Source: Pelagomonas calceolata
Lineage: Eukaryota
Assembly (NCBI GenBank): GCA_918797485.1
Contig: CAKKNE010000003.1
Location: 3,782,001 to 3,846,000, forward strand
Length of the DNA: 64,000 nt
Reading direction: 5' to 3'
Positions 11,412 to 51,320 of the stretch are shown here, piece by piece. The position numbers and the translations under genes are program-made. Each line of letters begins with the position of its first letter. Positions within the stretch are counted from its first letter, which is position 1. The notes under the pieces were generated by a model. That model did not search any database and was not told where the DNA came from. It saw nothing but the letters and a program-made list of their open reading frames with translations.

Positions 11412-11775
11412 CGGGCGTCGCGGCGGGCCCGCGGACTATCGCCTGATATGAACGTCGCGGATCCGAGACGTGGGGCGCGCGTCGTGCGCGTCGACCGAAT
11501 CACGATTCCATAACTTGTTGTTCTTTTGGAAGTTGTGCTACGCCGGAAGATCACGCAGTCCTGCTTCCTAGAATCTCAGAGCACGCTAGCTCGCGCTCTC
11601 GTTAAAGTTTAAAACTCAGCAGGCGCCCGCTCGATTTACGAGCGCGCGGTACAAAAGAATGACCGCCCTGGCAATGCCGCACGTCGACAGCGTCCAGAGC
11701 TCAACGCCCACAGCTTGGCGCGCCGCGCGCGGCCGCTCAGCGCGCGGTTTCGGCCAAAAGCCGACTGAGTTTGAA

Positions 11776-14765: not shown

Positions 14766-14899
14766 AACTAGGCGCGTACCCCCCTTTCCCCCCATTCTAA
14801 CTTGAACGATTACATTGGCCTCGTCGCCGCGCAGTCAGTCCGCCTTCCGAGTGGCTCTGATGAGTATACAAATCTTACAAAGGGCCGAACGACGACGCG

Positions 14900-16179: not shown

Positions 16180-16257
16180 TGCTAGTGTCTTACAGGCCGC
16201 TAGCCACGCGAAGCCGCGGCGCCGCGCTGCGGGCTAGCGTCCAGTAAGACACTAGCA
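16180..16257. promoter_or_regulatory. Inverted pair of the conserved CTAG-n-CTAG motif in a divergent intergenic region
   Basis: tgctagtgtcttacaggccgctagc (16180-16204) and gctagcgtccagtaagacactagca (16233-16257). Confidence 0.6.
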
Positions 16258-18335: not shown

Positions 18336-18788
18336 ATGAACCTCGGCGACGAGCACATGACCGACGAGACGCGCGAGGTGTACCGAGCCAAGGTCGCCGA
18401 GCGCCAGGCGAAGGAGGACGCGCTCGTCCAGAAAAGAATAGAGGAGGCGTCCGACTACGTCGGCACCCGTGTGGAAACCAACCGGTGAGTCGGGTTCACG
18501 AGGAACTGGCATCGCACGGAACGCGTCGCGAATGTCCACACGCAGGTCGGCACGTTCAGGGCGGAACGCGAGACGAAGCTGCGCGACGTGACCATGCCGA
18601 AGAACCGTGAAGGCGAGCACGCGTTCCTCGAGGCGCTCGAGACCGCCGCCGAGTCGGACGCGACATGGGCCCGCGTCCTCTCGCTCGTCGACACGGAGCC
18701 CGACGCCTGGGGCGGCGTGGACCTGGCGCGCCTCCGCGCCGTGCTCATCAAGAAGAAGGCCGAGGAGACGCAGGCGCTCGCCGCGTAG
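18336..18788 (+). CDS. Clathrin light chain-like protein; intron 18459-18545
   Basis: Spliced product has a charged central helix plus TWARVLSLVD....DLARLRAVLIKKK, matching the CLC C-terminal WERV..L.D / D.SRMR.VL pattern. Confidence 0.7.
18467..18545 (+). mobile_element. Introner element (diverged TIRs, perfect 8-bp TSD)
   Basis: gtcggcac TSD at 18459-18466 and 18546-18553; element starts ccgtgtggaaaccaaccggtgagtcgggt and ends cacacgcag. Confidence 0.8.
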
Positions 18789-18984
18789 GGGCGTAAGCGC
18801 GGATGGCGCCTCGGAGGAGCCGCTGCCGCGGGGCGTGGGCCCGCGACGCAGTAGGTCTCGAGGAAGGGGGAGATACGTCCGCGGTAGACGGCTCTGGTCA
18901 CGCTTAAGCTTCGATGATTGCGTGCGGGTTTTCAGCGGCCGCCCTTTGCAAGCACGCGCACGCCCCGGACAGACGAATAGAGAG

Positions 18985-21900
18985 ATGCCGAGCCTCGCCG
19001 TGGTCGCCGGCGCCCTGCTGCTGCGCTTGGGCAGCGCCGCGCCGCCGCGGGCGCCCGCGCGGGGCGGCATCAAACTGAGCAGCTGCCCCAGGGGCTCGAG
19101 CCCCGCCGCGGCGCACGACGACAGCGAAGCGGCGATCGAAACATTTGCTCGAGACTACGAAATCACCACGTCCTACGAAAACGGCAGCACGTGCGCCGCG
19201 CAAGCCGGCGAGAACGGCCTCGACGGCGCTGCCCCCAAGGCCCTGGCGACGAGCGCCGCAGCGAGGAACACGTGGCTCCAGCTCTACAAGAACAACGGCG
19301 CGGACGGCCTCTACGCCGACGCGTTCGACTCCGAGCCTATCAAAGGCGCGGCGACGACCGAGCTCGACTCGAACAAGTACCAGGCGGGCGGGGTGCACGC
19401 GCTCCACGCCATCGAGCAGACCGTCGGCAGCGACGTGCAATACAAGAACTACCGGTCGGACGGCACCATATTGATGTTGGCGGCCCCGACCAAGGGCGGC
19501 GTCGACGTCTTGGACGTCGCGTCCGCCGAGCTGGCGCCTACGCCCGGCACCACGATGCAGTTCAAGGGCGGCGTCGACGAAGAAGAAGCGGCCCAGAGCT
19601 ACCTTGGGCGGACTTCCTGGTGCATCTTCCAGGTACTCGCTTCGGTGGTTCCGCGGCGCAGTAGCTCGGCGAAGGGCGCGGCCTGGCGCTTGTCCGTCGT
19701 CGGCTACATGGTTATTTGGGACGTCGCCCGCGCTGCACCAAGCTCCATACCGACGACCGGCGCGCCGACGTACTGGACGCCCTGGCCGACACGTCGGCCG
19801 TCGTTTGCGCCGACGTCGACGCCGGCGCCAACCTTGACGCCCGCGCCAACGCGAGCGCCGACGACGCCCGCGCCAACGCGAGCGCCGACACCTGTGCCGA
19901 CGTCGACGCCCGCGCCGACACCTGCACCGACGTCGCTGCCCACCGCGACGCCAGCGCCTACGACGGCTGCGCCTACGGCTACACCCATTGTCGCGGACGA
20001 CAGCACTATTAGAACGGCCGTTTTGCTCTGGTTCTCGGACCGCGCCGCCGCCATCCGCACGTACGGCCACATCTCGACGTGGGAGACATCAGGGGTGACG
20101 GACATGTCCTGCCTATTTGGTACCAATACGTGGTGTGGCGGTAACACAGCCGCAGCGTCCTTTAACGAGGACATCGGCGCGTGGGGCACCTCCGGCGTAA
20201 CGAGGATGTACGGGATGTTCTGGGGCGCCTCGTCGTTCAATCAGAATGTTGGCGGCTGGAGCGTCGAGAACGTGTATGAGATGGGCCAGATGTTCACCTC
20301 CGCCTCGGCCTTTAATCAGGACATCGGCGGCTGGAGCGTCGACAACGTCAGGGATATGCACTACATGTTCCACTACGCCTCGGCCTTCGACCAGGACCTC
20401 AACTGGTGCCTAGGCGACGACGTGAACCTCGACGAGGCGTTTTCCGGCACGCCGTGCGTGTCGACGTCGTGCGGCATCGTGCGGGGCCGTTCTGAGGGTG
20501 GCATATGTGTGACGCTTGCGCCGACATTCTTCGATGGCGCATTTAGCGACGAAAGCATCCGCACGGCAGTCCGAGCCTGGATGGAGGACCGCGCCGCCGC
20601 CGAGGCGACGTACGGCCACATTTCTTCGTGGGAGACCTCCGAGGTGACGGACATGTCGAAGTTGTTTTGCGTGTGGCAGGATTGGATGGGAGGCGAATCG
20701 TGGTATGACGATTGCGTCTCGGAGGCGTCCTTCAACGAGGACATCGGCGCGTGGGACACCTCTGGCGTAACGAGGATGTACGGGATGTTCTGGTACGCCT
20801 CGTCGTTCAATCAGAATATTGGCGGCTGGAGCGTAGGAAACGTCAGGGATATGGTCTACATGTTCAACTACGCCTCGTCGTTCAATCAGAATATAGGCGG
20901 CTGGAACGTCGAAAACGTCAGGGATATGCACCAGATGTTCAGCGGCGCCTCGTCATTTAATCAGGACATCGGCGGCTGGCGCGTCGAGCAGGTCCTAGAT
21001 ATAAGCTACATGTTCCACTATGCCTCGGCCTTCGACCAAGACCTCGGCTGGTGCGTGGGCGACGGCGTCTTTGATGGCGACCTGTACGCTACGTTCGTCG
21101 GCACCCCGTGCGCGTCGACGTCGTGCGGCGTGAGGAAAGTTGCGGGTGGCTGCGCACCATCGCCCGCGCCCACCGCCTCGGCGGCGCCGACCCCGAGCAA
21201 CATTATGAGCGACTCCAGAATCGGCACGGCAGTCCGAGCCTGGGCGGAGGACCGCGCCGCCGCCGAGGCGACGTACGGCCACATCTCGACGTGGGAGACT
21301 GGGGGGGTGACGGACATGTCGTTCTTGTTTTGCGTGCGGCAGGACCATATGGAGGGCGAATCGTGGCATGACTATTGCGTCTTTTCAACGTCGTCCTTTA
21401 ACGAGGACATTGGCGCGTGGGACACCTCTGGCGTCACGTCGATGTCCAGGATGTTCAGCGGCGCCTCGGCCTTCGACCAGGACATCAGCGCCTGGAACGT
21501 CGAAAACGTCAGGGATATGTCCTGGATGTTCGGCTCCGCCTCGTTCTTCAATCAGAACATAGCCGGTTGGAGCGTTGCCCGAGTCATCACTATGCACAAG
21601 ATGTTCCAAGGCGCCTCGGCGTTCAACCAGCCGCTGAACGACTGGCGCGTCGACAACGTCAGGGATATGTCCTGGATGTTCACCAGCGCCTCGTCGTTCA
21701 ATCAGAACATAGGCGGCTGGAACGTCGAACAAGTCACCAATATGAACTGGATGTTCACCTCCGCCTCGGCCTTCGACCAGGACATCAGCGCCTGGAGCGT
21801 CGAACAAGTCACCAATATGCACTGGATGTTCGGACACGCCTCGTCCTTTAATCAGGACATCAGCGGCTGGCGCGTCGAAAACGTCAGGGACATGGACCAT

Positions 21901-24900
21901 ATGTTCCACCACGCCTCGGCCTTCGACCAGGACCTCGGCGGCTGGCGCGTCGAGCAGGTCACGGATATGCACTACATGTTCCACTGGGCCTCGTCCTTCA
22001 GCCAGAACCTCAACTGGTGCCTAGGCGACGACGTGAACCTCGACGAGGCGTTCTCCGGCACGCTGTGCGCGCCGACGTCGTGCGGCGTCCAACAGCGTGC
22101 TGCAGGCAGCTGCGCGCCGTCGCCCGCGCCGACGACGACCGTCCCCACGATCAGTGCCGCCCCCACGATGGACGTCTGCCCATCGATCGGCGAATCCGAC
22201 TACGAGGGCCGCACGCTCTACTGCTTCGAAGCCGGGGGCGAGATTCACAACGTCCTGCGCGTCGAAGATGAACAAACAACCTGCCGCCACACGGACGAGA
22301 ACAGCTGCCCAGACGGCTTCGACATCTGGGTGCCGCGGAACTACGAGCACCTCCAAGCTGTTTACAGCCTCGCGAGAGACTGGTGGCCGCACGAGGACTG
22401 GCGCGCCTACGAGATGATGAACCCAGTGGGCGTCTACCGCGAAGAGAACGGCTGCGGTCCGTGCCACGACTCTGCGATGAACAGCGAGGCGATGGCCGGC
22501 TACACTGGTGTCGCGTGGCAGAGTGTAGCGGGCGATCCGTGGTTCCTGTCGACAAACGGCATCGACGACTGGGGAGAGTACGAAGCCGGCTGTTGGCTCG
22601 GGATCCAGCACTACTGGGATCAGGGATTGAAGCTCTACTCCTCCCATTGCAATATGTGCCAATCGTCTTACCTGTGCTCGACGAACCTGGCCAAGGCAGC
22701 TCCCAGTCCAGCGCCGACGACGGCCGTCCCCACGATCAGCGCGGCGCCAACGATGGACGTCTGCTCTTCTGTTGGCGAGTTCGAGTACGAGGGCCGCACG
22801 CTCTACTGCGTCGAGGCCGAGGGCGAGCTCCACAACGTCCTGCGCGTCGAGGGCGGCCGCAATACGTGCCGCCACACGGACGAGAACAGCTGCCCCGCCG
22901 GCTTCGACATCTGGGTGCCGCGCAGCTACGCGCACGCGTTCGCAGTCGTCGAGGCGACGGGCGGGCAAGACCTCCAGCATCACAACTTCCTCGTCGGCAT
23001 TTACCGCGACGAGGACGGCTGCGGCTCGTGCCAGGACTACGCCATGAACAGCGACGCCATGGCCACATACGGCGGCGTCGGCTGGCGGGGCGTTGCAAGA
23101 GGCGATTGGTTCATGCGGTCGTCGGCCTACCACCAGCCAGATGGCGACTACGAAGCAGGCTGCTGGCTTGGCACGAACGGCTGGACGGCCGACGAGGGCT
23201 TCGAATTCTACGACAGCCAGTGTCACCAGTGCTTCTCGACGTACCTGTGCTCGACGAATACCGTCAAAGCCGCGCCCAGCCCCGCGCCGACGCTCACCCC
23301 GGCGCCGTCAATCAGCCTGGCGCCCACGATTGACATCTGCGCGGCGTCCGGCGAGTTCGAGTACGAGGGCCACACGCTCTACTGCGTCGAGGCTGCGGGC
23401 GAGATCCACAGCGTTCTGCCTGTCAACTTTGGTCAAACGACGTGCCGTTACACGGACGAGAACAGCTGCCCCGCCGGCTTCGACATCTGGGTGCCGCGGA
23501 ACTACGAGCACCTCCAAGCTGTTTACAGCCTCGCGAGAGACTGGTGGCCGCACGAGGACTGGCGTGCCTATGAGATGATGAACCCCGTGGGCGTCTACCG
23601 CGAAGAGAACGGCTGCGGGCCGTGCTGGGAGTACGAGATGAACAGCGAGGCGATGGCCGGCTACACTGGTGTCGCGTGGCAGAGTGTAGCGGGCGATCCG
23701 TGGTTCCTGCGGTCGACGAGCGGCTTGGATCACTGGGACGAGTACGAAGCTGGCTGCTGGCTCGGAGTTCATGGCCACTGGGATCAGGGGCTGGCGTTAT
23801 ACACTAACCGCTGCAATAACTGCCAGTCGTCGTACCTGTGCTCGACGAACCTAGGCAAGGCAGCTCCCAGTCCAGCGCCGACGACGGCCGTCCCCACGAT
23901 CAGCGCCGCGCCCACGATGGACGTCTGCTCTTCTGTTGGCGAGTTCGAGTACGAGGGCCGCACGCTCTACTGCGTCGAGGCCGAGGGCGAGCTCCACAAC
24001 GTCCTGCGCGTCGAGGGCGGCCGCAATACGTGCCGCCACACGGACGAGAACAGCTGCCCCGCCGGCTTCGACATCTGGGTGCCGCGCAGCTACGCGCACG
24101 CGTTCGCAGTCGTCGAGGCGACGGGCGGGCAAGACCTCCAGCATCACAACTTCCTCGTCGGCATTTACCGCGACGAGGACGGCTGCGGCTCGTGCCAGGA
24201 CTACGCCATGAACAGCGACGCCATGGCCACATACGGCGGCGTCGGCTGGCGGGGCGTTGCAAGAGGCGATTGGTTCATGCGGTCGTCGGCCTACCACCAG
24301 CCAGATGGCGACTACGAAGCAGGCTGCTGGCTTGGCACGAACGGCTGGACGGCCGACGAGGGCTTCGAATTCTACGACAGCCAGTGTCACCAGTGCTTCT
24401 CGACGTACCTGTGCTCGACGAATACCGTCAAAGCCGCGCCCAGCCCCGCGCCGACGCTCACCCCGGCGCCGTCAATCAGCCTGGCGCCCACGATCGACAT
24501 CTGCGCGGCGTCCGGCGAGTTCGAGTACGAGGGCCGCACGCTCTACTGCGTCGAGGCAGCGGGCGAGATCCACAGTGTTCTGCCTGTGTTTGGTCAAACG
24601 ACGTGCCGATACACGGACGAGAACAGCTGCCCAGACGGCTTCGACATCTGGGTGCCGCGGAACTACGAGCACCTCCAAGCTGTCTACGGGATCGTGCAAA
24701 GCTTTGAGATGATGAGTCCCGTGGGCGTCTACCGCGAAGAGAATGGCTGCGGGCCGTGCCACGACTATGCGATGAACAGCGAGGCGATGGCCGGCTACAC
24801 TGGTGTTGCTTGGCAGAGCGTCGCGGGCGATCCGTGGTTCCTGCGGTCGACAAGCGGCATCGACGACTGGGGAGAGTACGAGGCCGGCTGTTGGCTCGGC

Positions 24901-27900
24901 CTTCAGCACTACTGGGATCAGGGATTGAAGGTCTACTCCTCCCATTGCAATATGTGCCAGTCGTCGTACCTGTGCTCGACGAACGTGGCCAAGGCCGCGC
25001 CGTCGCCCGCGCCCACCGCCTCGGCGGCGCCGACCCCGAGCAACGTTGTGAGCGACGCCAGAATCCGCATGGCAGTCCGAGCCTGGATGGAGGACCGCGC
25101 CGCCGCCGAGGCGACGTACGGCCACATCTCGACGTGGGAGACTGGCGGGGTGACGGACATGTCGCACTTGTTTTGCGTGCGGCAGGATTGGATGGAAGGC
25201 GAATCGTGGGACGATTGCGTTTCGGAGGCGTCCTTCAACGAAGACATCGGCGCGTGGGACACCTCTGGCGTCACCGATATGAACCACATGTTCGAAGGCG
25301 CCTCGTCGTTCAATCAGGCGATCGGCGTGTGGACGGTCGGCGAAGTCAGGCAGATGCAGGGCATGTTTAAGAGTGCGCATATGTTTGACCAAGACCTAAG
25401 CGCCTGGACTGTCGACAGCGTTACAGATATGGCTTGGATGTTCGCCTGGGCCTCGTCGTTCAATCAGAATATAGGCGGCTGGAGCGTTGCACAAGTCACC
25501 AATATGAACAACATGTTCAGCGGCGCCTCGGCCTTTAATCAGGACATCGGCGGCTGGCGCGTCTACAGCGTCAGGGATATGCACTACATGTTCCACCACG
25601 CCTCGGCCTTCGACCAGGACCTCAGTGCGTGGGAAACCTCTGGTGTTACGAACATGCACCAGATGTTCAGCTGGGCCTCGTCGTTCGACCAGGACATCAG
25701 CGCCTGGAACGTCGAGAACGTCAGGGACATGCACTACATGTTCCACTACGCCTCGGCCTTCGACCAGGACCTCGGCTGGTGCGTCGACAACGACGTGAAC
25801 CTCGACGAGGCGTTCTCCGGCACGCCGTGCGTGTCGACGTCGTGCGGCGTCGTGCAGGGCCGTTCTGAGGGTGGCATATGTGTGACGCTTGCACCGACAT
25901 TCTTCGATGGAGCATTTGGCGACGAAAGTATCCGCACGGCAGTCCGAGCCTGGATGGAGGACCGCGCCGCCGCCGAGGCGATGTACGGCCACATCTCGAC
26001 GTGGGAGACTTCCGGGGTGACAGACATGTCGTATTTGCTTTGCGCGAATCAATGGGATATAAACTGCAACTCGGTCGCGGCGTCTTTTAACGAGGACATC
26101 GGCGCGTGGGACACCTCTGGCGTAACGAGGATGTACGGGATGTTCGGGGACGCCTCGTCGTTCAATCAGAATATAGGCGGTTGGAGCGTTGCCAACGTTC
26201 ATGGGATGGGCCGGATGTTCGAAGGCGCCTCGGCCTTCGACCAGGACATAGGCGGCTGGCGCGTCGAGAACGTCAGGGACATGCACCAGATGTTCAACTC
26301 CGCCTCGGCCTTCAGCCAGAACCTCAACTGGTGCGTAGGCGACGACGTGAACCTCGACGAGGCGTTCTCCGGCACGCTGTGCGCGCCGACGTCGTGCGGC
26401 GTCCAACAGCGTGCTGCAGGCAGCTGCGCGCCGTCGCCCGCGCCGACGACGACCGTCCCCACGATCAGTGCCGCCCCCACGATGGACGTCTGCCCATCGA
26501 TCGGCGAATCCGACTACGAGGGCCGCACGCTCTACTGCTTCGAAGCCGGGGGCGAGATCCATAACATTCTGCGCGTCGAAGATGAACAAACAACCTGCCG
26601 CCACACGGACGAGAACAGCTGCCCAGACGGCTTCGACATCTGGGTGCCGCGGAACTACGAGCACCTCCAAGCTGTTTACAGCCTCGCGAGAGACTGGTGG
26701 CCGCACGAGGACTGGCGCGCCTACGAGATGATGAACCCAGTGGGCGTCTACCGCGAAGAGAACGGCTGCGGTCCGTGCCACGACTCTGCGATGAACAGCG
26801 AGGCGATGGCCGGCTACACTGGTGTCGCTTGGCAGAGCGTCGCGGGCGATCCGTGGTTCCTGCGGTCGACGGGCGGCATCGACGACTGGGGAGAGTACGA
26901 AGCCGGCTGTTGGCTCGGGATCCAGCACTACTGGGATCAGGGATTGAAGGTCTACTCCTCCCATTGCAATATGTGCCAGTCGTCGTACCTGTGCTCCACG
27001 AACCTGGCCAAGGCAGCTCCCAGTCCCGCGCCGACGACGGCCGTCCCCACGATCAGCGCTGCGCCAACGATGGACGTCTGCTCTTCTGTTGGCGAATTCG
27101 ACTACGAGGGCCGCACGCTGCACTGCGTCGAGGCCGAGGGCGAGATCCACAACGTCCTGCGCGTCGAGGGCGGCCGCAATACGTGCCGCCACACGGACGA
27201 GAACAGCTGCCCCGCCGGCTTCGACATCTGGGTGCCGCGCAGCTACGCGCACGCGTTCGCAGTCGTCGAGGCAACGGGCTGGCAGGACCTCCAGCATCAC
27301 AACTTCCTCGTCGGCATTTACCGCGACGAGGACGGCTGCGGTTCGTGCCAGGACTACGCGATGAACAGCGACGCCATGGCCACATACGGCGGCGTCGGCT
27401 GGCGGGGCGTTGCAAGAGGCGATTGGTTCATGCGGTCGTCGGCCTACCACCGGCCAGATGGCGACTACGAAGCCGGCTGCTGGCTTGGCACGCACGGCTG
27501 GACGGCCGACGAGGGCTTCGAGTTCGAAGACAGCCAGTGTCACCGGTGCTTCTCGACGTACCTGTGCTCGACGAATACCGCAAAGGCCGCGCCCAGTCCC
27601 GCGCCGACGATCACGCCGCGGCCGACGGTGACCGCTGCGCCGACTGTCGAGATTTGTTCGACAACCGGCGAGTTCGAGCACGAGGGCCACACACTCTACT
27701 GCGTCGAGGCAGCGGGCGAGATCCACAGCGTCCTGCCTGTCAACTTTGGTCAAACGACCTGCCGATACACGGACGAGAACAGCTGCCCAGACGGCTTCGA
27801 CATCTGGGTGCCGCGCAGCTACGAGCACCTCCGGGCGGTCTACGATCTCGCGAGAGAGGAGTGGCGCGCCTTCGAGACGATGAGGCCCGTGGGTATCTAC

Positions 27901-30900
27901 CGCGATGGGGACGGCTGCGGCTCGTGCGGCGACTACGCGATGAACAGCGACGCCATGGCGGACTACGACGGCGTCGGCTGGCGGAGCGTCGCGGGCGATC
28001 CGTGGTTCCTGCGGTCGACAAACGGCTTGGAAAACCATGGCGAGTACGAGGCCGGCTGCTGGCTCGGGTTTCATGGCCACTGGGATCAGGGGCTGGCACT
28101 ATACACTTCCCACTGCAATAACTGCCAGTCGTCGTACCTGTGCTCGACGAACCTAGCCAAGGCAGCTCCCAGTCCCGCGCCGACGACGGCCGTCCCCACG
28201 ATCAGTGTCGCACCCACGATGGATGTGTGCTCTTCTGTTGGCGAGTTCGACTACGAGGGCCGCACGCTGCACTGCGTCGAGGCCGAGGGCGAGATCCACA
28301 ACGTCCTGCGCGTCGAGGGCGGCCGCGATACGTGCCGCCACACGGACGAGAACAGCTGCCCCGCCGGCTTCGACATCTGGGTGCCGCGCAGCTACGCGCA
28401 CGCGTTCGCAGTCCTCGAGGCAACGGGCTGGCAGGACCTCCACCACGAGCACTTTCTCGTCGGCATTTACCGCGACGAGGACGGCTGCGGCTCGTGCCAG
28501 GACTACGCGATGAACAGCGACGCCATGGCCACGTACAGCGGCGTCGGCTGGCAAAGCGTTGCCGGGGATCCGTGGTTCATGCGGTCGTCGACCTACAGCG
28601 AGCCAAACGGCGACTACGAAGCCGGCTGCTGGCTTCGTACGAACGGCTGGACGGCCGGCGAGGGCTTCGAGTTCAACGATGCGACCTGTAATTATTGCTT
28701 CTCGACGTACCTGTGCTCGACGAATACCGCAAAGGCAGCGCCCAGTCCCGCGCCGACGCTCACGCTGGGGCCGACCGCGACCGCGGTGCCGACTGTCGAG
28801 ATGTGTTCTTCTTCCGGCGAGTTCGCGTACGAGGGCCACACGCTCTACTGCGTCGAGGCAGCGGGCGAGATCCACAGCGTTTTGCCCGTCAACTTTGGTC
28901 GCACGACGTGCCGTTACACGGACGAGAACAGCTGCCCAGACGGCTTCGACATCTGGGTGCCGCGGAACTACGAGCACCTCCAAGCTGTCTACGGGATCGT
29001 GCAAAGCTTTGAGATGATGAGTCCCGTGGGCGTCTACCGCGAAGAGAATGGCTGCGGGCCGTGCCACGACTATGCGATGAACAGCAAGGCGATGGCCGGC
29101 TACACTGGTGTTGCTTGGCAGAGCGTCGCGGGCGATCCGTGGTTCCTGCGGTCGACAAGCGGCATCGACGACTGGGGAGAGTACGAGGCCGGCTGTTGGA
29201 TCGGGGTTCATGGCCACTGGGATCAGGGGCTGGCGTTATACACTTCCCACTGCAATATGTGCCAGTCGTCGTACCTGTGCTCGACGAACGTGGCCAAGGC
29301 CGCGCCGTCGCCCGCGCCCACCGCCTCGGCGGCGCCGACCCCGAGCAACATTATGAGCGACGCCAGAATCCGCACGGCAGTCCGAGCCTGGGCGGAGGAC
29401 CGCGCCGCCGCCGAGGCGACGTACGGCCACATCTCGACGTGGGACACATCAGGAGTGACGGACATGTCGTATTTGTTTTGCGTGCGGCAGGATTGGATGG
29501 AAGGCCAATCGTGGTATGACGATTGCGTCTCGGAGGCGTCCTTCAACGAGGACATCGGCGCGTGGGACACCTCTGGCGTAACGAGGATGTACGGGATGTT
29601 CTGGGGCGCCTCATCGTTCAATCAGAATATTGGCGGCTGGAGCGTCGAGAACGTTGATGAGATGGGCCACATGTTCACCTCCGCCTCGGCCTTCGACCAG
29701 GACATCAGTGGTTGGGCGGTCCAAAGCGTCACGACGATGTACAGGATGTTCGCCGGCGCCTCGTCGTTCAATCAGAATATAGGCGGCTGGAGCGTTGCAC
29801 AAGTCACCAATATGAACAACATGTTCAGCGGCGCCTCGGCCTTTAATCAGGACATCGGCGGCTGGAGCGTCGAGAACGTCAGGGACATGCACTACATGTT
29901 CCACTACGCCTCGGCCTTCGACCAGGACCTCGGCTGGTGCGTCGACAACGACGTGAACCTCGACGAGGCGTTCTCCGGCACGCCGTGCGTGTCGACGTCG
30001 TGCGGAATCGTGCGGGGCCGTTCTGAGGGTGGCATATGTGTGACACTTGCGCCGACATTCTTCGATGGCGCATTTGGTGACGAAAGTATCCGCACGGCAG
30101 TCCGAGCCTGGATGGAGGACCGCGCCGCCCCCGAGGCGACGTACGGCCACATCTCGACGTGGGAGACATCGGGGGTGACGGACATGTCGCATTTGTTTTG
30201 CGTGCGGCAGGATTGGATGGAAGGCGAACCGTGGTATGACGATTGCGTCTTATCGACGTCGTCCTTCAACGAGGACATCGGCGCGTGGGACACCTCCGGC
30301 GTAACGAGGATGTACGGGATGTTCTGGGGCGCCTCGTCGTTCAATCAGAATATTGGCGGCTGGAGCGTCGAGAACGTTGATGAGATGGGCCACATGTTCA
30401 CCTCCGCCTCGGCCTTCGACCAGGACATCAGTGGTTGGGCGGTCCAAAGCGTCACGACGATGTACAGGATGTTCGCCGGCGCCTCGTCGTTCAATCAGAA
30501 CATAGGCGGCTGGAACGTCGAACAAGTCACCAATATGCACTGGATGTTCGGACACGCCTCGTCCTTTAATCAGAACATTGGCGGCTGGAGCGTCGAGAAG
30601 GTCACGGATATGCACTACATGTTCCACCACGCCTCGGCCTTCGACCAGGACCTCGGCTGGTGTGTCGACAACGATGTATACCTCGACGAGGCGTTCTCCG
30701 GCAGCGGGTGCTGCTCAATGTCCTGCGGCGTCGCTCAAAAGGACGAAACCGGCGACTGCCAAATCATAGATTCGTGGGGCTGCTACTACTACTACGACGA
30801 CGACGACGACGACGACGATGGGGCCACGGAACTCGTCATGTCAACGGGACTCGCGGCGATTGGCATCACGTTCACGGGCCTCACCATCGCGGCGATCGCG

Positions 30901-31143
30901 AATGCGGTCCAGGAACAATGCGCCCTGGGCCCCACGATCGTCTACGAAGCCGGCACGACGCACCCGTACTACATCTCACCAAATCTATGCACCATCGGGA
31001 CCAAGACCTTTTCGTCGGACAAGACAGTTCGCGACGCGTCTCCGCGCAAGGTCTGCCGCAAGTTCTGCGAGGCTGCATCGGAGAAGGGCAAACTGGCGCT
31101 CAAGCACGTCCAGGGCCTGACGTGCTACTGCAAACGGAGGTAG
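18985..31143 (+). CDS. Giant (~4000 aa) surface protein: 7 DUF285/BspA-like repeat modules, 10 Cys/Trp-rich putative lectin-like domains, P/T linkers, C-terminal TM segment
   Basis: Uninterrupted ORF; 25-aa W.(T/V)..V..M..MF..AS.FNQ.I repeats; domain DENSCP.GFDIWVPR...YEAGCWL...YLCSTN x10; hydrophobic GLAAIGITFTGLTIAAIANA near the end; true start uncertain. Confidence 0.85.
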   Translation: MPSLAVVAGALLLRLGSAAPPRAPARGGIKLSSCPRGSSPAAAHDDSEAAIETFARDYEITTSYENGSTCAAQAGENGLDGAAPKALATSAAARNTWLQLYKNNGADGLYADAFDSEPIKGAATTELDSNKYQAGGVHALHAIEQTVGSDVQYKNYRSDGTILMLAAPTKGGVDVLDVASAELAPTPGTTMQFKGGVDEEEAAQSYLGRTSWCIFQVLASVVPRRSSSAKGAAWRLSVVGYMVIWDVARAAPSSIPTTGAPTYWTPWPTRRPSFAPTSTPAPTLTPAPTRAPTTPAPTRAPTPVPTSTPAPTPAPTSLPTATPAPTTAAPTATPIVADDSTIRTAVLLWFSDRAAAIRTYGHISTWETSGVTDMSCLFGTNTWCGGNTAAASFNEDIGAWGTSGVTRMYGMFWGASSFNQNVGGWSVENVYEMGQMFTSASAFNQDIGGWSVDNVRDMHYMFHYASAFDQDLNWCLGDDVNLDEAFSGTPCVSTSCGIVRGRSEGGICVTLAPTFFDGAFSDESIRTAVRAWMEDRAAAEATYGHISSWETSEVTDMSKLFCVWQDWMGGESWYDDCVSEASFNEDIGAWDTSGVTRMYGMFWYASSFNQNIGGWSVGNVRDMVYMFNYASSFNQNIGGWNVENVRDMHQMFSGASSFNQDIGGWRVEQVLDISYMFHYASAFDQDLGWCVGDGVFDGDLYATFVGTPCASTSCGVRKVAGGCAPSPAPTASAAPTPSNIMSDSRIGTAVRAWAEDRAAAEATYGHISTWETGGVTDMSFLFCVRQDHMEGESWHDYCVFSTSSFNEDIGAWDTSGVTSMSRMFSGASAFDQDISAWNVENVRDMSWMFGSASFFNQNIAGWSVARVITMHKMFQGASAFNQPLNDWRVDNVRDMSWMFTSASSFNQNIGGWNVEQVTNMNWMFTSASAFDQDISAWSVEQVTNMHWMFGHASSFNQDISGWRVENVRDMDHMFHHASAFDQDLGGWRVEQVTDMHYMFHWASSFSQNLNWCLGDDVNLDEAFSGTLCAPTSCGVQQRAAGSCAPSPAPTTTVPTISAAPTMDVCPSIGESDYEGRTLYCFEAGGEIHNVLRVEDEQTTCRHTDENSCPDGFDIWVPRNYEHLQAVYSLARDWWPHEDWRAYEMMNPVGVYREENGCGPCHDSAMNSEAMAGYTGVAWQSVAGDPWFLSTNGIDDWGEYEAGCWLGIQHYWDQGLKLYSSHCNMCQSSYLCSTNLAKAAPSPAPTTAVPTISAAPTMDVCSSVGEFEYEGRTLYCVEAEGELHNVLRVEGGRNTCRHTDENSCPAGFDIWVPRSYAHAFAVVEATGGQDLQHHNFLVGIYRDEDGCGSCQDYAMNSDAMATYGGVGWRGVARGDWFMRSSAYHQPDGDYEAGCWLGTNGWTADEGFEFYDSQCHQCFSTYLCSTNTVKAAPSPAPTLTPAPSISLAPTIDICAASGEFEYEGHTLYCVEAAGEIHSVLPVNFGQTTCRYTDENSCPAGFDIWVPRNYEHLQAVYSLARDWWPHEDWRAYEMMNPVGVYREENGCGPCWEYEMNSEAMAGYTGVAWQSVAGDPWFLRSTSGLDHWDEYEAGCWLGVHGHWDQGLALYTNRCNNCQSSYLCSTNLGKAAPSPAPTTAVPTISAAPTMDVCSSVGEFEYEGRTLYCVEAEGELHNVLRVEGGRNTCRHTDENSCPAGFDIWVPRSYAHAFAVVEATGGQDLQHHNFLVGIYRDEDGCGSCQDYAMNSDAMATYGGVGWRGVARGDWFMRSSAYHQPDGDYEAGCWLGTNGWTADEGFEFYDSQCHQCFSTYLCSTNTVKAAPSPAPTLTPAPSISLAPTIDICAASGEFEYEGRTLYCVEAAGEIHSVLPVFGQTTCRYTDENSCPDGFDIWVPRNYEHLQAVYGIVQSFEMMSPVGVYREENGCGPCHDYAMNSEAMAGYTGVAWQSVAGDPWFLRSTSGIDDWGEYEAGCWLGLQHYWDQGLKVYSSHCNMCQSSYLCSTNVAKAAPSPAPTASAAPTPSNVVSDARIRMAVRAWMEDRAAAEATYGHISTWETGGVTDMSHLFCVRQDWMEGESWDDCVSEASFNEDIGAWDTSGVTDMNHMFEGASSFNQAIGVWTVGEVRQMQGMFKSAHMFDQDLSAWTVDSVTDMAWMFAWASSFNQNIGGWSVAQVTNMNNMFSGASAFNQDIGGWRVYSVRDMHYMFHHASAFDQDLSAWETSGVTNMHQMFSWASSFDQDISAWNVENVRDMHYMFHYASAFDQDLGWCVDNDVNLDEAFSGTPCVSTSCGVVQGRSEGGICVTLAPTFFDGAFGDESIRTAVRAWMEDRAAAEAMYGHISTWETSGVTDMSYLLCANQWDINCNSVAASFNEDIGAWDTSGVTRMYGMFGDASSFNQNIGGWSVANVHGMGRMFEGASAFDQDIGGWRVENVRDMHQMFNSASAFSQNLNWCVGDDVNLDEAFSGTLCAPTSCGVQQRAAGSCAPSPAPTTTVPTISAAPTMDVCPSIGESDYEGRTLYCFEAGGEIHNILRVEDEQTTCRHTDENSCPDGFDIWVPRNYEHLQAVYSLARDWWPHEDWRAYEMMNPVGVYREENGCGPCHDSAMNSEAMAGYTGVAWQSVAGDPWFLRSTGGIDDWGEYEAGCWLGIQHYWDQGLKVYSSHCNMCQSSYLCSTNLAKAAPSPAPTTAVPTISAAPTMDVCSSVGEFDYEGRTLHCVEAEGEIHNVLRVEGGRNTCRHTDENSCPAGFDIWVPRSYAHAFAVVEATGWQDLQHHNFLVGIYRDEDGCGSCQDYAMNSDAMATYGGVGWRGVARGDWFMRSSAYHRPDGDYEAGCWLGTHGWTADEGFEFEDSQCHRCFSTYLCSTNTAKAAPSPAPTITPRPTVTAAPTVEICSTTGEFEHEGHTLYCVEAAGEIHSVLPVNFGQTTCRYTDENSCPDGFDIWVPRSYEHLRAVYDLAREEWRAFETMRPVGIYRDGDGCGSCGDYAMNSDAMADYDGVGWRSVAGDPWFLRSTNGLENHGEYEAGCWLGFHGHWDQGLALYTSHCNNCQSSYLCSTNLAKAAPSPAPTTAVPTISVAPTMDVCSSVGEFDYEGRTLHCVEAEGEIHNVLRVEGGRDTCRHTDENSCPAGFDIWVPRSYAHAFAVLEATGWQDLHHEHFLVGIYRDEDGCGSCQDYAMNSDAMATYSGVGWQSVAGDPWFMRSSTYSEPNGDYEAGCWLRTNGWTAGEGFEFNDATCNYCFSTYLCSTNTAKAAPSPAPTLTLGPTATAVPTVEMCSSSGEFAYEGHTLYCVEAAGEIHSVLPVNFGRTTCRYTDENSCPDGFDIWVPRNYEHLQAVYGIVQSFEMMSPVGVYREENGCGPCHDYAMNSKAMAGYTGVAWQSVAGDPWFLRSTSGIDDWGEYEAGCWIGVHGHWDQGLALYTSHCNMCQSSYLCSTNVAKAAPSPAPTASAAPTPSNIMSDARIRTAVRAWAEDRAAAEATYGHISTWDTSGVTDMSYLFCVRQDWMEGQSWYDDCVSEASFNEDIGAWDTSGVTRMYGMFWGASSFNQNIGGWSVENVDEMGHMFTSASAFDQDISGWAVQSVTTMYRMFAGASSFNQNIGGWSVAQVTNMNNMFSGASAFNQDIGGWSVENVRDMHYMFHYASAFDQDLGWCVDNDVNLDEAFSGTPCVSTSCGIVRGRSEGGICVTLAPTFFDGAFGDESIRTAVRAWMEDRAAPEATYGHISTWETSGVTDMSHLFCVRQDWMEGEPWYDDCVLSTSSFNEDIGAWDTSGVTRMYGMFWGASSFNQNIGGWSVENVDEMGHMFTSASAFDQDISGWAVQSVTTMYRMFAGASSFNQNIGGWNVEQVTNMHWMFGHASSFNQNIGGWSVEKVTDMHYMFHHASAFDQDLGWCVDNDVYLDEAFSGSGCCSMSCGVAQKDETGDCQIIDSWGCYYYYDDDDDDDDGATELVMSTGLAAIGITFTGLTIAAIANAVQEQCALGPTIVYEAGTTHPYYISPNLCTIGTKTFSSDKTVRDASPRKVCRKFCEAASEKGKLALKHVQGLTCYCKRR
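22168..24984 (+). repeat. Block 1 of five tandem Cys/Trp domains (A-B-A-B-A), AB period 1164 bp
   Basis: Domain starts at ~22168, 22752, 23329, 23916, 24493; the B copies at 22752 and 23916 are near-identical in DNA. Confidence 0.9.
26482..29289 (+). repeat. Block 2 of five tandem Cys/Trp domains; block offset 4314 bp from block 1
   Basis: MDVCPSIGESDYEGR at 22168 and 26482; further copies at ~27070, 27646, 28219, 28795. Confidence 0.9.
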
Positions 31144-31250: not shown

Positions 31251-33424
31251 TCACGCGCCGGGCAGGCGGACGCGCTTCATCGGCCCCCCGGGCACCGTGG
31301 GGTTCGGCGCGCACCACGCCCGCCGCAGCGCCGGGCACGCGTCGGCGACGGGCGGCCAGCTCCCACCGTTCTTAACCGATCGGACCTCCTCCACCGTCCG
31401 CGGACAGAGCGACAGGTTCTCGACGCCGTCGGCCCGAACTAAGACGTCGTCCTCGAGTCGCACGCCCCCAAAACCCCGGAACTCTCGCAGTCGGTCGGCG
31501 TTCAGGAACTTTGCGAGAGAAGGGTCCTTGAGCGCGTCGTCCAACAACCGGTCGATGAAGTAGCAGCCCGGCTCCACAGTGAGCATCATACCCTCCTCGA
31601 CGATCCGCGCCGTTCTCAATTTATTGAGGCCCGGTCTCTGCGGTCGGTCCGGGTTGCCGTCCAGGTAGCCGCCGACCTGCGCGGACGTCGAACTTCGGGC
31701 GCCCCGCGGCGTCGACGCGACGCCGTGACCGTACGAACCTAACTCACCGCGTGATTTCCACACCGGCACACACGTCGTGCGTGTCCAGCCCGATCAGGTG
31801 CCCGAGGCCGTGCGGCATGAAGGTCGAGCCCAGGTCGGCCGCCAGCATCTCCTCAATATCGCCCGCGAGGACGCCTCCCCTGGTTAAGTGTTCCAGGATC
31901 GTCCGCTCGGCGAGGCGGTGCATGTCCGGCCACGCGACCTGTGTGGAAATCAACCAGTGTGTTGCGTGCACTTCTCGGCGATGACGCGGCCGTGCTGGCT
32001 CCGTCGAGCGGTAAGGAACCGGCATCGCCACGCCATCGAGCAGGCGTCGCGTCGAGAACGCGCCGTAAAATTTTGATTTCCACACAGCACGCGACGCCCG
32101 GCTTCAAGGCACCAATGACCGCCACCTGCGCCGCCAGCACGGCCTCGTGGACCAAAATTTGATCCGACGTGAAGTCCGAGGAGATGGGGAAGCTGCACGT
32201 GATGTCGCTGGCATAACAATGGTACTCCGCGCCCATGTCCAATAGCGCCTGGTCGCCCTCTTTAAGTAACCGCGCGTTCGGCGCGCCTGCGTGGTCATCG
32301 ACTCTACGCGCCGTCGCGCGGACGGTTCCCACGCGGAGCCCGCGCCCGCGTGGCCGTAGTGCAGCACGGCCGGGTTCGGGCCACAAGCACAGATGCACGT
32401 GTACGCCATGTGGCGACACCCCCCGTGCGTGTACGTGTGGTGCATGAACAGCGACTCGAGCTGGTACTCCATCTGGCCCGGCCTCGCGTACCGCATCACC
32501 TCCGAGTGCGCCATGGAAGAGACCTGTGTGCTGGATCGTCGCGTCGACCTCCACGCCATCGACGCGACGCCTGCTCGATAGCGTGGCGGTGCCGGTTCCT
32601 CACTGCTCGACGGAGCCAGCGCAGCCGCGCCATCGCCGAGAAAATGAGCACCCGACGCACTGGTTGATTTCCACGCCGGACGACACCCAGTTGACGTACC
32701 GCATGACCTCGACCTCGGCCGCCGTTTTTCTGGTCCTCAAGTCGGCGATGGCGTCGAATAATGTGGTAAGGTCCCGTCGCTCGCGAAAAACGTCGTCGCC
32801 GTCGAAGGAAGCCGGCGCCGCGTAGTTGCCGCTGTCGCTGTTCCGCCCGTGCAACAAGTACACCTTAGCTGTGTCGTCCGTCGCGATCGCGTCCGCGAGC
32901 CAGTTCTGGAGGCTGCCCGTGAAGTAGCACGCATCGACCGCGTACTTTTCGACAAACGCTGCGCACGACGGCGCCCTACCACAAAAGACCTCGTAGGCCT
33001 CGCTGCGTAGATCGGGCACAAATAGAGTCGCGGAGCCGTCCTGCAAGTTTACTGCACCGTAGCAACCCGGCTCGGAGACCCCGAACAGCCACTGGAAGTA
33101 CGACTCCTGGCGGAAGACGGGTTCATGGTCCGTGTCGTACCTCAATTGCTGGTCGCCGCCCTGCACTAACACAACGCCTCGATGCGCCTTCATGCGGTCG
33201 CAGAGCCTCGCCCTATTCAGCGCATGCAGCGCCATCGGCACGCGGTAGGTATCTAACCCTTGGTCGTACTTCGCGCCGATCTGGCCCGTTTCGAGGCACG
33301 TGCGGCACTCGGCCTCGCTGATGGAGCGCCGGTCCGCGAGCGAGGGCATGCGACCCCTCGCCGCGAGGGCTTCCGTTTGCGCGTGCAGCAGGGCTAACAG
33401 GAGCCAGCTGCGGAGGCTTGGCAT
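31251..33424 (-). CDS. PEPD: Xaa-Pro dipeptidase (prolidase, M24B); exons 33424-32687, 32523-32346, 32286-32096, 31938-31774, 31676-31251
   Basis: [86 protein letters not shown]; the four predicted introns keep frame exactly. Confidence 0.95.
31677..31773 (-). mobile_element. Degenerate introner-derived intron (one TIR retained)
   Basis: Minus strand: THD|gtgtgtgc-cggtgtggaaatca...cgcag|VGG. Confidence 0.6.
31939..32087. mobile_element. Intact introner element, 149 bp, perfect TIRs and 8-bp TSD
   Basis: cacgcgac + ctgtgtggaaatcaa ... ttgatttccacacag + cacgcgac; intron on minus strand = 31939-32095. Confidence 0.92.
32524..32678. mobile_element. Introner element, same family, partly diverged
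   Basis: Minus strand starts cggcgtggaaatcaaccagtgcgtcgggtg and ends cacacag; TSD gtgtcgtc/gtctcttc (6/8); internal sequence aligns with 31939-32087 in the opposite orientation; intron 32524-32686. Confidence 0.85.
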
Positions 33425-44566: not shown

Positions 44567-45500
44567 TCAGAGAAAGATCGGTTGCCTGTGTGGGAACGAC
44601 ACAGTCACGAAACGACCGCGGCTCTCTCACGAGGCATGTAGACTCTCATGCGGCCGCATCGACGGCGTCGAGGCGGTGCGGCACCGCGTCGACGCCATCG
44701 CCGCGACCACGTCATGTTGAAGCTCATTTTATGCTCTGAGTCAGCACCATCCGGGCGGCTTGTGCTTGCAGGCCTTGGAGTGTGCGACCTGTGTAGAAAT
44801 GAAGTCTCGCGCTGAATCATATGGCTTGATTTCCACACAGGCGCCAGACGGCGGCGGGTGCGTGCCCGAAGACTCGGCCACACTTGTGCGCGCAGGGATA
44901 GTTCCCATCAGCGTCTTGGGGAGGCTTCGACATCGCCTGGTGGTTGCGTCGGAAGCGCGAGGGGGCGAACGGCCGCGGGGCCGACGACGCCTTGGGCGCG
45001 CGTCGGGGCGGGGCCGGTGCTTGCGGTAAGGCCTTGCGCGGCGGCTTGAGGGATAAAAGGAGCCAGGCGGCGCGGTTGGGGTTCTCGTCGAGAATGCGCA
45101 CGGCATCTAATTGGGAGGGCTTGACGGGCTCGTAGAGGAGCTCGGGCGTCCGGTAGACGGCTCCCGGCGAAGCCACGGCCGCGAGGAGCTCGCGCTTCTC
45201 GACGCCGGGCGTCGGCGGGAGCCGCGCCGCGGAGGCGGCGCGCGGGGAAGCTTCATCGTCCGAGGAGCTCACCTTCGGTACCGGCGCTTCGACAGTGACG
45301 CGGACGCCCGGCGGCCACGCGGGGAGCGCGGCGTCCGGGCGGCGGCCCGAGGGGCTGCGTTGCTCCGGCGGCGTCACCGTTCCCGCTCGTACGAGAGCCG
45401 ACGGCACGACGACGCTCATCTTGGCGGCGGGGGGTGCCTTGGCGAGGGCCGGGGCGGCCGACGCGATCTTCGTGGTGCTTGCGGTGGGCGCGGGTGTCAT
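44567..45500 (-). CDS. Low-complexity protein with C-terminal C2HC-type zinc finger; introns 44789-44849 and probably 44586-44747
   Basis: Splicing restores CAHKCGRVFGHAPAA|VAHSKAC; the second intron gives a KPPGWQPIFL* end (KPPGWC* if unspliced). Confidence 0.6.
44789..44840. mobile_element. Minimal 52-bp introner element
   Basis: ctgtgtagaaatga ... tgatttccacacag TIRs; TSD degenerate; intron 44789-44849 on minus strand. Confidence 0.75.
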
Positions 45501-49157: not shown

Positions 49158-51320
49158 TTAACGCGAGTCACTACGACGCCGGCGCCCGCGGTCGCGCGAG
49201 CGCGAACGGTCTCGACGCCGCCGCCCTCGCGACCGCGACCGCGAGCGATCCGCATACGCCCCGGGCGGCGGCGGGCCGGACGGCATCTGCGGCGGCGCGA
49301 CGCCTTGCGTCTCGGACATCCAGGCCGGCCGGTTGTCGACGCCGCGGCCGCGCCCGCCACCGCCGCCGCCGCCGTAGTGCCCGTTGCCGCCGCTATCGCC
49401 GTAGTGCCCATTACTGCCGCCGCCATCCCCATAATGCCCGTTGCCGCCGCCGCCCTGGCCGCGGCGGCCGCCGCCAGACGAGAACTGCATCGACGAGCCC
49501 ATGTGCCCACCGCCGCGAACCATGGCCCTTAATTCATCAGGAACTTGTTGACCGGCGTCCTCCATCAGCTTAACTAACGGACCGGCCTTCCGGTCGTCCC
49601 GTTGCGTGAAGAAGGTGTAGGCGTTGCCCGTGGCGCCCGCTCTCCCAGTACGACCAATTCGATGCACGTAGTCCTCCACGTTGCCCGGAAAGTCGTAATT
49701 TATGACAGCGCGCACATCTTTAATATCCAAGCCCCGCGCCGCGACGTCCGTCGCGATGAGCACGGGACAGATGCCCACTTTAAAGGCCTCGATCGTTTGT
49801 GTTCTCTGATACTGGTCCTTGTCGCCGTGCATCGCTGAGCAGCGCAACTGCAGCAGGCGCGGCATGGACCGCTCGAGCTGGTCACATAAGCGCTTCGAAT
49901 TCGCAAAAACAATAATCCGACACGTTTGACCTTGAGCGGCCTCTACTTCTTTCCGCACGCACTCCGCGAGTAGTCTATCTTTATCCTGCGGTGATCTCGT
50001 CACGAAGACGTGCTGCGTCACGTCACTATTAGCTTTCAGCGAGCCCGACGTATCTCCGACATATATCACAACCTGTGTGAAAATCAAAATTTTACGGCAC
50101 GCCATCGACGCGACGCCTGCTCGATGGCACCCGACGCACTGGTTGATTTCCACACAGATCACCACGGGCTCACTCAAAAACTCCGACGCCAGCGACCGCA
50201 CCTCGCGCGGCCACGTCGCCGTGAAGAATAACGTCTGCCGCCGGTCGGGGCAGCGTTGTACGATGCGCCGAATTTGGGGCTCGAAGCCCATGTCGAGCAT
50301 CCTATCGGCCTCGTCAAAGACCAGGTAGCGACACGCGTACAGGTCGACCATCCCGGCCTCGAGGAAGTCGTTCAGGCGCCCGGGCGTGGCGATGCACACG
50401 TGCGCGCCTTGTCGTAAAGCAGCCATCTGCGGGCCTTTTGGGGCGCCCCCGTAGCAGCAGACGCTTTTCACGCCGAGCGGGCCGCCAAATTTCCGCGCCT
50501 CGTCCTCGATCTGCGTCGCGAGCTCGCGCGTCGGGGCCAAGACCAAGACCTTCGGCGCGCAGGCCTGGCACGGCCGCGGGTAGCCCTCGCCGCAAAGTAA
50601 TTTGAACGCCGGCACGAGGAAGCCTAACGTTTTGCCGCTGCCCGTTTTTGCGACGCCAATAACGTCTCTCCCTTGAAGGGCCGGAGGCCAGGCCTGGCCC
50701 TGGATGGGCGACGGCGTGGCGAAGCCGGCGGCTTTCAGCGAGGTATACAAGGCGGGCAGCAACGGCGCGTCCTCGAAGCGAGGAAAACAAGAATCGCAGC
50801 CGCCCGCGACCGTGATGTCCCGCTCGCGTCGCCACCGGAGCACGTCGGGCGGGCTCTCCAAATCTTTTTTTAACGAAGAGAGGTCCCCGCCGCGCTTCTT
50901 CGGTTGTGTAGAAGGCACGGAAAACTGCGGCGGCGGCCTTCCCATGCGCGACGCCGCGATGTGCGCCTGCACGGCGTCCCACGCGTCCTGGGCCTCCTCG
51001 GGCAAGGTCTGGGCCGAGGCGCCCTCGTAGTTCTGCGGTACCTGGGTTGAGGGCGGCAAGGGTTGTGCCGAGGCCGCTACGACGGGTTCCGGTGCTTTCG
51101 GCGGCGTCCACGAGACCTTGCCCGTGCTATGTTCGTAGAAGTAGGTGTTGCCCGTCGTCGGGCAGCGGGCCGGCGACCAGCCTGCCGGGAGGCCGGGCAT
51201 CGCTGGTGGCGGCGGTGGCTGCGCGGCCTGCTGCGGCTGCGCGTAGCTCTGCGGCGCTTGCCCGGCGTAGGCGGCCTGCTGTTGACCATAACTGGCGCCG
51301 TTGGCGTAGCCGCCGTACAT
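49158..51320 (-). CDS. DEAD-box RNA helicase, DBP2/DDX5-like with N-terminal WW domain (plant RH14-like); intron 50073-50165
   Basis: LPAGW......YFY....VSW (WW); PSPIQ; AKTGSGKT; PTRELA; DEAD; TAT; ARGLD; HRIGRTGR; Gly-rich and RS tail. Confidence 0.93.
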   Translation of the reverse strand: MYGGYANGASYGQQQAAYAGQAPQSYAQPQQAAQPPPPPAMPGLPAGWSPARCPTTGNTYFYEHSTGKVSWTPPKAPEPVVAASAQPLPPSTQVPQNYEGASAQTLPEEAQDAWDAVQAHIAASRMGRPPPQFSVPSTQPKKRGGDLSSLKKDLESPPDVLRWRRERDITVAGGCDSCFPRFEDAPLLPALYTSLKAAGFATPSPIQGQAWPPALQGRDVIGVAKTGSGKTLGFLVPAFKLLCGEGYPRPCQACAPKVLVLAPTRELATQIEDEARKFGGPLGVKSVCCYGGAPKGPQMAALRQGAHVCIATPGRLNDFLEAGMVDLYACRYLVFDEADRMLDMGFEPQIRRIVQRCPDRRQTLFFTATWPREVRSLASEFLSEPVVICVEINQCVGCHRAGVASMACRKILIFTQVVIYVGDTSGSLKANSDVTQHVFVTRSPQDKDRLLAECVRKEVEAAQGQTCRIIVFANSKRLCDQLERSMPRLLQLRCSAMHGDKDQYQRTQTIEAFKVGICPVLIATDVAARGLDIKDVRAVINYDFPGNVEDYVHRIGRTGRAGATGNAYTFFTQRDDRKAGPLVKLMEDAGQQVPDELRAMVRGGGHMGSSMQFSSGGGRRGQGGGGNGHYGDGGGSNGHYGDSGGNGHYGGGGGGGRGRGVDNRPAWMSETQGVAPPQMPSGPPPPGAYADRSRSRSRGRRRRDRSRSRDRGRRRRSDSR
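50073..50157. mobile_element. Introner element, 85 bp
   Basis: atcacaac + ctgtgtgaaaatcaa ... ttgatttccacacag + atcaccac (TSD 7/8); appears in the ORF track as a VVI...VVI duplication. Confidence 0.9.

Follow-up and report, generated by a model that had tools for sequence, protein, structure and literature searches.

A prolidase intron probably formed by an introner

Element C in the Pelagomonas calceolata window (the whole stretch of 64,000 nucleotides that was analyzed) is a real introner confirmed by RNA. Together with one copy of its 8-bp target duplicate, the element forms a GT-AG intron in a prolidase gene, termed intron C, which is spliced out precisely and very probably originated from the insertion of a non-autonomous cut-and-paste introner into coding sequence.

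The non-coding element spans 149 bp (31939-32087) and its terminal inverted repeats (TIRs) are complementary at 15 of 15 positions. The flanks 31931-31938 and 32088-32095 are identical, constituting an exact 8-bp target-site duplication (TSD) that appeared at a flank length of 8 only among the lengths of 4-13 tried. The perfect ends and the flank match restricted to 8 bp bear out the preliminary description of a 149-bp element with perfect TIRs and an exact 8-bp duplication. The parts of the element and the intron are as follows.

31939..32087, no strand assigned: element C, TIR element without coding; inverted ends 15/15 and blastn likeness to copies A and E
31939..31953, + strand: TIR of element C; reads CAG at its end on the gene strand, giving the 3' splice site
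32073..32087, - strand: second TIR of element C; starts 8 nt in from the 5' end of the intron
32088..32095, - strand: target duplication copy within the intron; its leading GT is the 5' splice site
31931..31938, - strand: target duplication copy kept in the mRNA, start of exon 4
31939..32095, - strand: intron C, 157 nt, GT-AG, phase 0; spliced in 4/4 RNA runs

A search for 10-bp inverted ends within 400 bp combined with an exact 8-bp direct flank returned element C as the sole match in the window, and the same pattern was found in none of 15 order-3 Markov simulations. The end motif had nine window matches at two or fewer mismatches compared to 0.04 expected (100 shuffles), and blastn aligned element C with copies A and E of the window at 85-91% likeness over the aligned stretches.

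The host gene was identified by Pfam and by a frame that is open after removal of four introns.

31251..33424, - strand: Xaa-Pro dipeptidase (prolidase), five exons, 565 aa with an assumed start codon

Its exons matched AMP_N and colinear pieces of Peptidase_M24 (positions 10-65, 66-127, 131-164, and 168-207), with exon 4 alone scoring 21 bits, which is below the Pfam cut-off of 23. The closest named relatives were Aureococcus anophagefferens proteins, and a sister cluster that was 86% identical included proteins of 539-561 aa from contigs of up to 84 kb. Among homologues spanning the intron C junction, 119 of 122 were equal in length to the spliced prolidase there. The GC content of the window was 56-71% across 2-kb bins, and 63% is given for the P. 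calceolata genome in the accessible part of its description (PMC9481584), a value within that range. The named relatives and the GC content make an origin in a pelagophyte of the Pelagomonas lineage likely.

Splicing of intron C

The donor GT of intron C corresponds to the first two bases of the target duplication and the acceptor CAG to the end of the inverted repeat; removal of the intron joins PG/VAW in frame, while its retention causes a frameshift leading to a stop. This arrangement, including the restored PG/VAW, had been proposed in the preliminary description and was upheld by both sequence and RNA. The predicted junction (31938/32096) was present in spliced reads or contigs of 4/4 RNA runs and no rival junction was listed for intron C. 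In run X24, 17 raw poly-A reads with 15 different starts crossed the junction, all on the strand expected of a minus-strand gene, and runs X9, X11, and X13 (whose RNA status is presumed) each contributed one assembled contig spliced at intron C. RNA reads and contigs were placed on the gene at 99% likeness, and as the contig sets of X9, X11, and X13 carried no other letters at this likeness, they may represent one strain. All four predicted introns of the gene (A-D) were skipped in 4/4 RNA runs. In introns B and D, which are unique, coverage was approximately 5 compared to 20-45 in the exons, so that some unspliced RNA is present; coverage of intron C is mixed with reads of other family copies.

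Related introns and copies in the window

The remaining prolidase introns and three further copies in the window were attributed to the same family to different degrees.

32524..32686, - strand: intron A, GT-AG, 163 nt long; an older member of the family oriented opposite to C, with 6/8 of the duplication matching; spliced in 4/4 RNA runs
32287..32345, - strand: intron B, GC-AG, 59 nt long; probably a member of the family in strongly decayed form, with 5/8 of the duplication matching; spliced in 4/4 RNA runs
31677..31773, - strand: intron D, GT-AG, 97 nt long; a decayed member of the family, with 4/8 of the duplication matching; spliced in 4/4 RNA runs
50073..50157, - strand: copy E, 85 bp long, inverted ends matching at 14/15 and the duplication, beginning GT, at 7/8; predicted 93-nt in-frame intron of a DEAD-box helicase frame
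18467..18545, + strand: copy G, 79 bp, exact 8-bp duplication beginning GT; predicted 87-nt intron with an in-frame stop
44789..44840, no strand assigned: copy F, 52 bp, ends 13/15, duplication 1/8, i.e., none recognizable

A remnant of the end motif was located 8 nt past the donor in all four prolidase introns, ranging from perfect in C to barely visible in B, for which a weak end remnant is the sole basis of its probable membership. The target sites of G (8/8), E (7/8), and A (6/8) all begin with GT. Copy E with its duplicate (50073-50165, - strand, 93 nt) leaves the helicase frame open, and gene prediction would therefore translate it as 31 additional residues. The exons between the four prolidase introns measure 178, 191, and 165 nt. 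Such lengths approximate one nucleosome repeat.

A second suspected TIR family was rejected as an element since it proved to be a motif upstream of genes. The 24-bp motif GCTAGCGNCNNGTAASAYACTAGC had seven exact matches in the window and none in 100 shuffles, with two looser copies.

2192, 8852, 16233, and 39523, + strand: exact matches of the 24-bp motif
16204, 56061, and 62345, - strand: exact matches of the 24-bp motif
48370, - strand, and 48964, + strand: looser copies of the 24-bp motif

Seven of the nine copies lie 100-270 bp upstream of a same-strand ATG opening a frame of at least 100 aa, and two copies point outward at 16181-16256. From its placement, the motif looks like a promoter-type element; the literature search returned nothing on it. 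Elsewhere in the window, an open frame of 4183 codons (18592-31143, + strand) contains 12 DUF285 stretches and large internal duplications, and a ribonucleotide reductase large subunit (11590-14800, + strand) is split over two frames meeting near 13841-13881, which suggests a short intron at this position.

Copies beyond the window and the search for a transposase

In public DNA runs, 35-46 contigs per run exited the element end at 32087 into unrelated sequence. The sequence past this end was varied (agreement 0.42-0.47), yet its consensus began with GT in 5/5 runs listed, as expected if many other copies use that end as an acceptor with a GT target following. Read placement at 90% likeness was dominated by other copies, such that summed depths do not equal copy numbers, and of runs X1, X5, and X6, X6 alone bridged an element junction by a 31-letter standard. 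The claim of a non-autonomous family was thereby sustained in that the element is multi-copy with independent target sites (duplications of 8/8 in G and 8/8 in D' of locus L083, described below, plus the varied flanks).

Candidate copies in other collections were discarded. Viral contigs gave 53 single 15-mer matches, none of which exceeded 23 bases by blastn, and these were read as chance. Of 16 GTDB loci, nine in Bacteroidota bins had the 15-mer inside an unrelated AT-rich repeat and six were isolated matches. The AT-rich repeat is dispersed, carries the 15-mer internally, and is unrelated to element C (L055, L056, L059, L060, L062-L064, L068, and L069). At L058:2627-2675, a contig of 64% GC that was binned with marine bacteria ends in a 47-base match to the family terminal sequence, probably as eukaryotic carry-over.

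No transposase, including the hAT-like frame anticipated in the preliminary description, was found in 40 of the 155 window ORFs, 53 viral loci, and 16 GTDB loci, and blastn identified neither a complete element nor a long TIR-bounded copy in the 53 viral and 16 GTDB loci. Non-autonomous hAT elements have an 8-bp duplication and short inverted ends, features shared by element C. A duplication of 8 bp does not single out hAT, and the consensus of hAT ends begins (C/T)A(A/G), whereas the ends of element C begin CTG. The accessible part of the P. calceolata annotation table contains at least one transposase gene, which is Tc1-like, and no hAT term among the entries listed (PMC9481584).

Age of element C

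Metagenome contigs scanned for the exon-4 motif yielded 22 loci, of which two (L080 and L083) were same-lineage genomic copies of the prolidase gene. Site C was uninterrupted in 19 of the 20 other loci, the last being too short; these share 46-66% amino acid identity and some may be transcripts. Element C was present at the same site in both same-lineage genomic copies, and no empty allele of site C occurred among these two. Intron C of L083 was identical over 157 nt, and that of L080 differed at 10 of 139 aligned sites (7%) plus a 4-nt insertion and an 18-nt deletion, with the ends and duplication intact. The window copy also departed from most reads of other copies at three or more positions (31963, 31965, and 32013; 40 of 133 rows). 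The divergence of L080 and the differences from other copies mean that the intact ends of element C are no proof of youth, and the sequence comparisons place it as intact yet not brand new.

In two allele pairs, the ends and duplication differed at 0/76 sites and the interiors at 17/203 (Fisher p = 0.005; 0.06 for C alone), which suggests that element ends are kept for a while by selection or conversion and lost in older copies. A tract at 31335-31385, probably a heterozygous stretch, held seven linked variants that made up roughly half of the depth in DNA runs X1, X5, and X6 and were absent from the few X23 RNA reads there. Since they share this tract, X1, X5, and X6 probably represent one clone and provide no test of strain polymorphism.

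An alternative intron in two metagenome contigs

Both L080 and L083 lack intron D and instead carry D', a 132-bp family member inserted 7 nt upstream in the reverse orientation.

L083:1497-1636 and L080:2913-3052: intron D', ends 15/15, GC donor

The D' duplication, beginning GC, is exact in L083 and has one synonymous change in L080, and the two D' copies differ at 7/140 positions. Each allele type holds a single copy of the other's target, i.e., the D and D' sites are reciprocally empty. By sequence, the arrangement is read as two insertions that occurred independently in a single hotspot the size of a linker. It also bears on the earlier claim that the family was recently active: the part relating to copy C is weakened, as this copy differs from most others and is shared with the diverged L080 allele; activity after the split of the prolidase alleles would be retained if D and D' are insertions.

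It is unlikely that the pair goes back to a single ancestral insertion that left its site and landed 7 nt from it in the opposite orientation (a local hop), or that was inverted and slid. D' is the nearest to D among the eight copies compared (65/89 identical, 73%, compared to 46/79 to 58/86 for the others), a likeness also expected from independent insertions, as reads of other loci show the end variant shared by D and D' to be that of a common subfamily. The two sites, separated by 7 nt, exclude one another, and the 8 nt past the donor of D fit the TIR start (6/8) better than the expected duplication (4/8). Against a local hop, D is decayed whereas the ends of D' are perfect and its duplication is exact, and the exon of neither allele bears an excision scar. 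Similarly improbable is a course in which D became D' by local re-transposition after becoming an intron (intron sliding) and recombination afterwards carried intron C from one of the two deeply diverged haplotypes to the other.

For D' alone, a less probable but appreciable reading is that L080 and L083 derive from chimeric assembly, from a paralogue, or from a related species, in which case there would be no polymorphism within one species. Both are metagenome contigs, L080 lacks the 5' part of the prolidase gene, and L083 is a mosaic: its introns A-C are identical over all 379 nt, but exon 5 differs at 7/20 four-fold sites and exon 1 at 17/89. Opposed to this, the order C-exon 4-D' recurs within approximately 160 nt on two separate contigs whose D' copies differ at 7/140 positions, the L080 frame is open from exon 3 to the stop, and mosaics would also arise by recombination of diverged alleles. 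Compared to window positions 31531-33276, L083 consists of identical and strongly diverged blocks, with differences clustering at 32961-33253, at 32483-32493, and from intron D onward; the mosaic reflects either recombination of diverged alleles or an assembly chimera.

Proposed mechanism of insertion

For an origin by independent cut-and-paste insertions, a transposase supplied in trans would make an 8-bp staggered cut in the target. This target starts with GT, which after its duplication serves as the donor. Both ends of element C read CAG on the outward-facing strand and therefore put an acceptor on offer in either orientation. Splicing takes out the element and one duplicate such that the protein is unchanged, and insertions at G-T or G-C targets would survive because they splice. 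Insertion may prefer nucleosome linkers. Such a preference would account for the intervals of 178, 191, and 165 nt between the four insertions in one mRNA, which agree with the linker bias described for Aureococcus introners (PMC9860276, in part), and for the distance of 7 nt between the distinct insertions of different alleles. The weak spots include copy F without a duplication, introns B and D with duplications of 5/8 and 4/8, the negative transposase search in the loci listed above, and the presence of element C in both same-lineage genomic copies.

It is highly improbable that intron C spreads via RNA, with the excised intron being reverse-spliced and the inverted ends being merely a stem that aids splicing. 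Reverse splicing results in a single orientation and a fixed donor; the copies sit in both orientations relative to genes (C and D' one way and A, D, E, and G reversed), and the 8 nt past the donor vary among copies, agreeing with the downstream exon. In its favor, the intron C RNA folds to a long stem (z = -4.36), closed at a distance of 8 nt from the donor, by which the two splice sites come to lie close to each other, the transposase search was negative in the 40 window ORFs and the viral and GTDB loci, and an RNA-based model was put forward for Micromonas elements in the part of that report available (PMC4540971). The stem may assist splicing but is a consequence of the inverted ends.

Comparison with known introners

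The preliminary description had aligned element C with an Aureococcus-type mechanism and this fit held for the TIR, the 8-bp TSD, and the pairing of one carried and one co-opted splice site. Huff, Zilberman, and Roy reportedly described in 2016 Aureococcus introners with an 8-bp duplication, an acceptor at both ends, and a co-opted donor. These introners resemble element C in having a TSD and TIR but belong to another genus, whose prolidase cluster is 65% identical over exon 1. The accessible text of a later report characterizes the introners of A. anophagefferens as MITE-like with TSD, TIR, and linker-biased insertion, sets out the introner type with a carried acceptor and a co-opted donor, and includes two Pelagomonas MAGs with introners, where TSD and TIR are marked '?' for the four families shown (PMC9860276).

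In P. calceolata itself, the available portion of the genome report gives 956 putative introners with GT or GC donors, an AG acceptor, and a conserved TIR (Guerin et al., 2022; PMC9481584). Element C shares with them the repeat-derived introns, the GT and GC donors, the AG acceptor, and the TIR, while their length peaks at about 210 bp compared to 157 nt for intron C, and TSD, orientation, mechanism, and polymorphism are absent from that portion of the report (PMC9481584, in part). The element C family is probably this published family, likened by description since the published TIR letters are a figure logo; the element C TIR motif had no matches in the text supplements that were searched (PMC9481584 and PMC9860276, each in part).

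The accessible part of a study on Micromonas reported presence/absence polymorphism of introners in wild populations with hotspots, as well as a single codon in which different elements were inserted at different phases (Simmons et al., 2015; PMC4540971). Micromonas is a green alga with elements on the coding strand only in the text available, in contrast to the prolidase case, where one family gives rise to introns D and D' with a separation of 7 nt and reversed orientation. According to a further source, the majority of introners are non-autonomous and approximately 72% are unclassified; in its accessible main text, pelagophytes are absent (PMC12130899). The available part of another source contained nothing bearing on element C (PMC12166617). 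No pelagophyte account of alternative insertions at one site was found in the literature search, which covered few subscription papers.

Implications

Element C is a clean, RNA-confirmed case of intron birth from a DNA transposon for which the mechanism is in print and the family probably so, and its added value is small and testable. Identification of the transposase of the pelagophyte introners would be of greater importance than element C itself. Only the pair of alleles with D and D' goes beyond the published work found. One prolidase gene holds an age series of four introner-type introns at about nucleosome spacing, and the wild alleles D and D' allow parallel gain to be told from local hopping, with a hint of recombination in natural populations.
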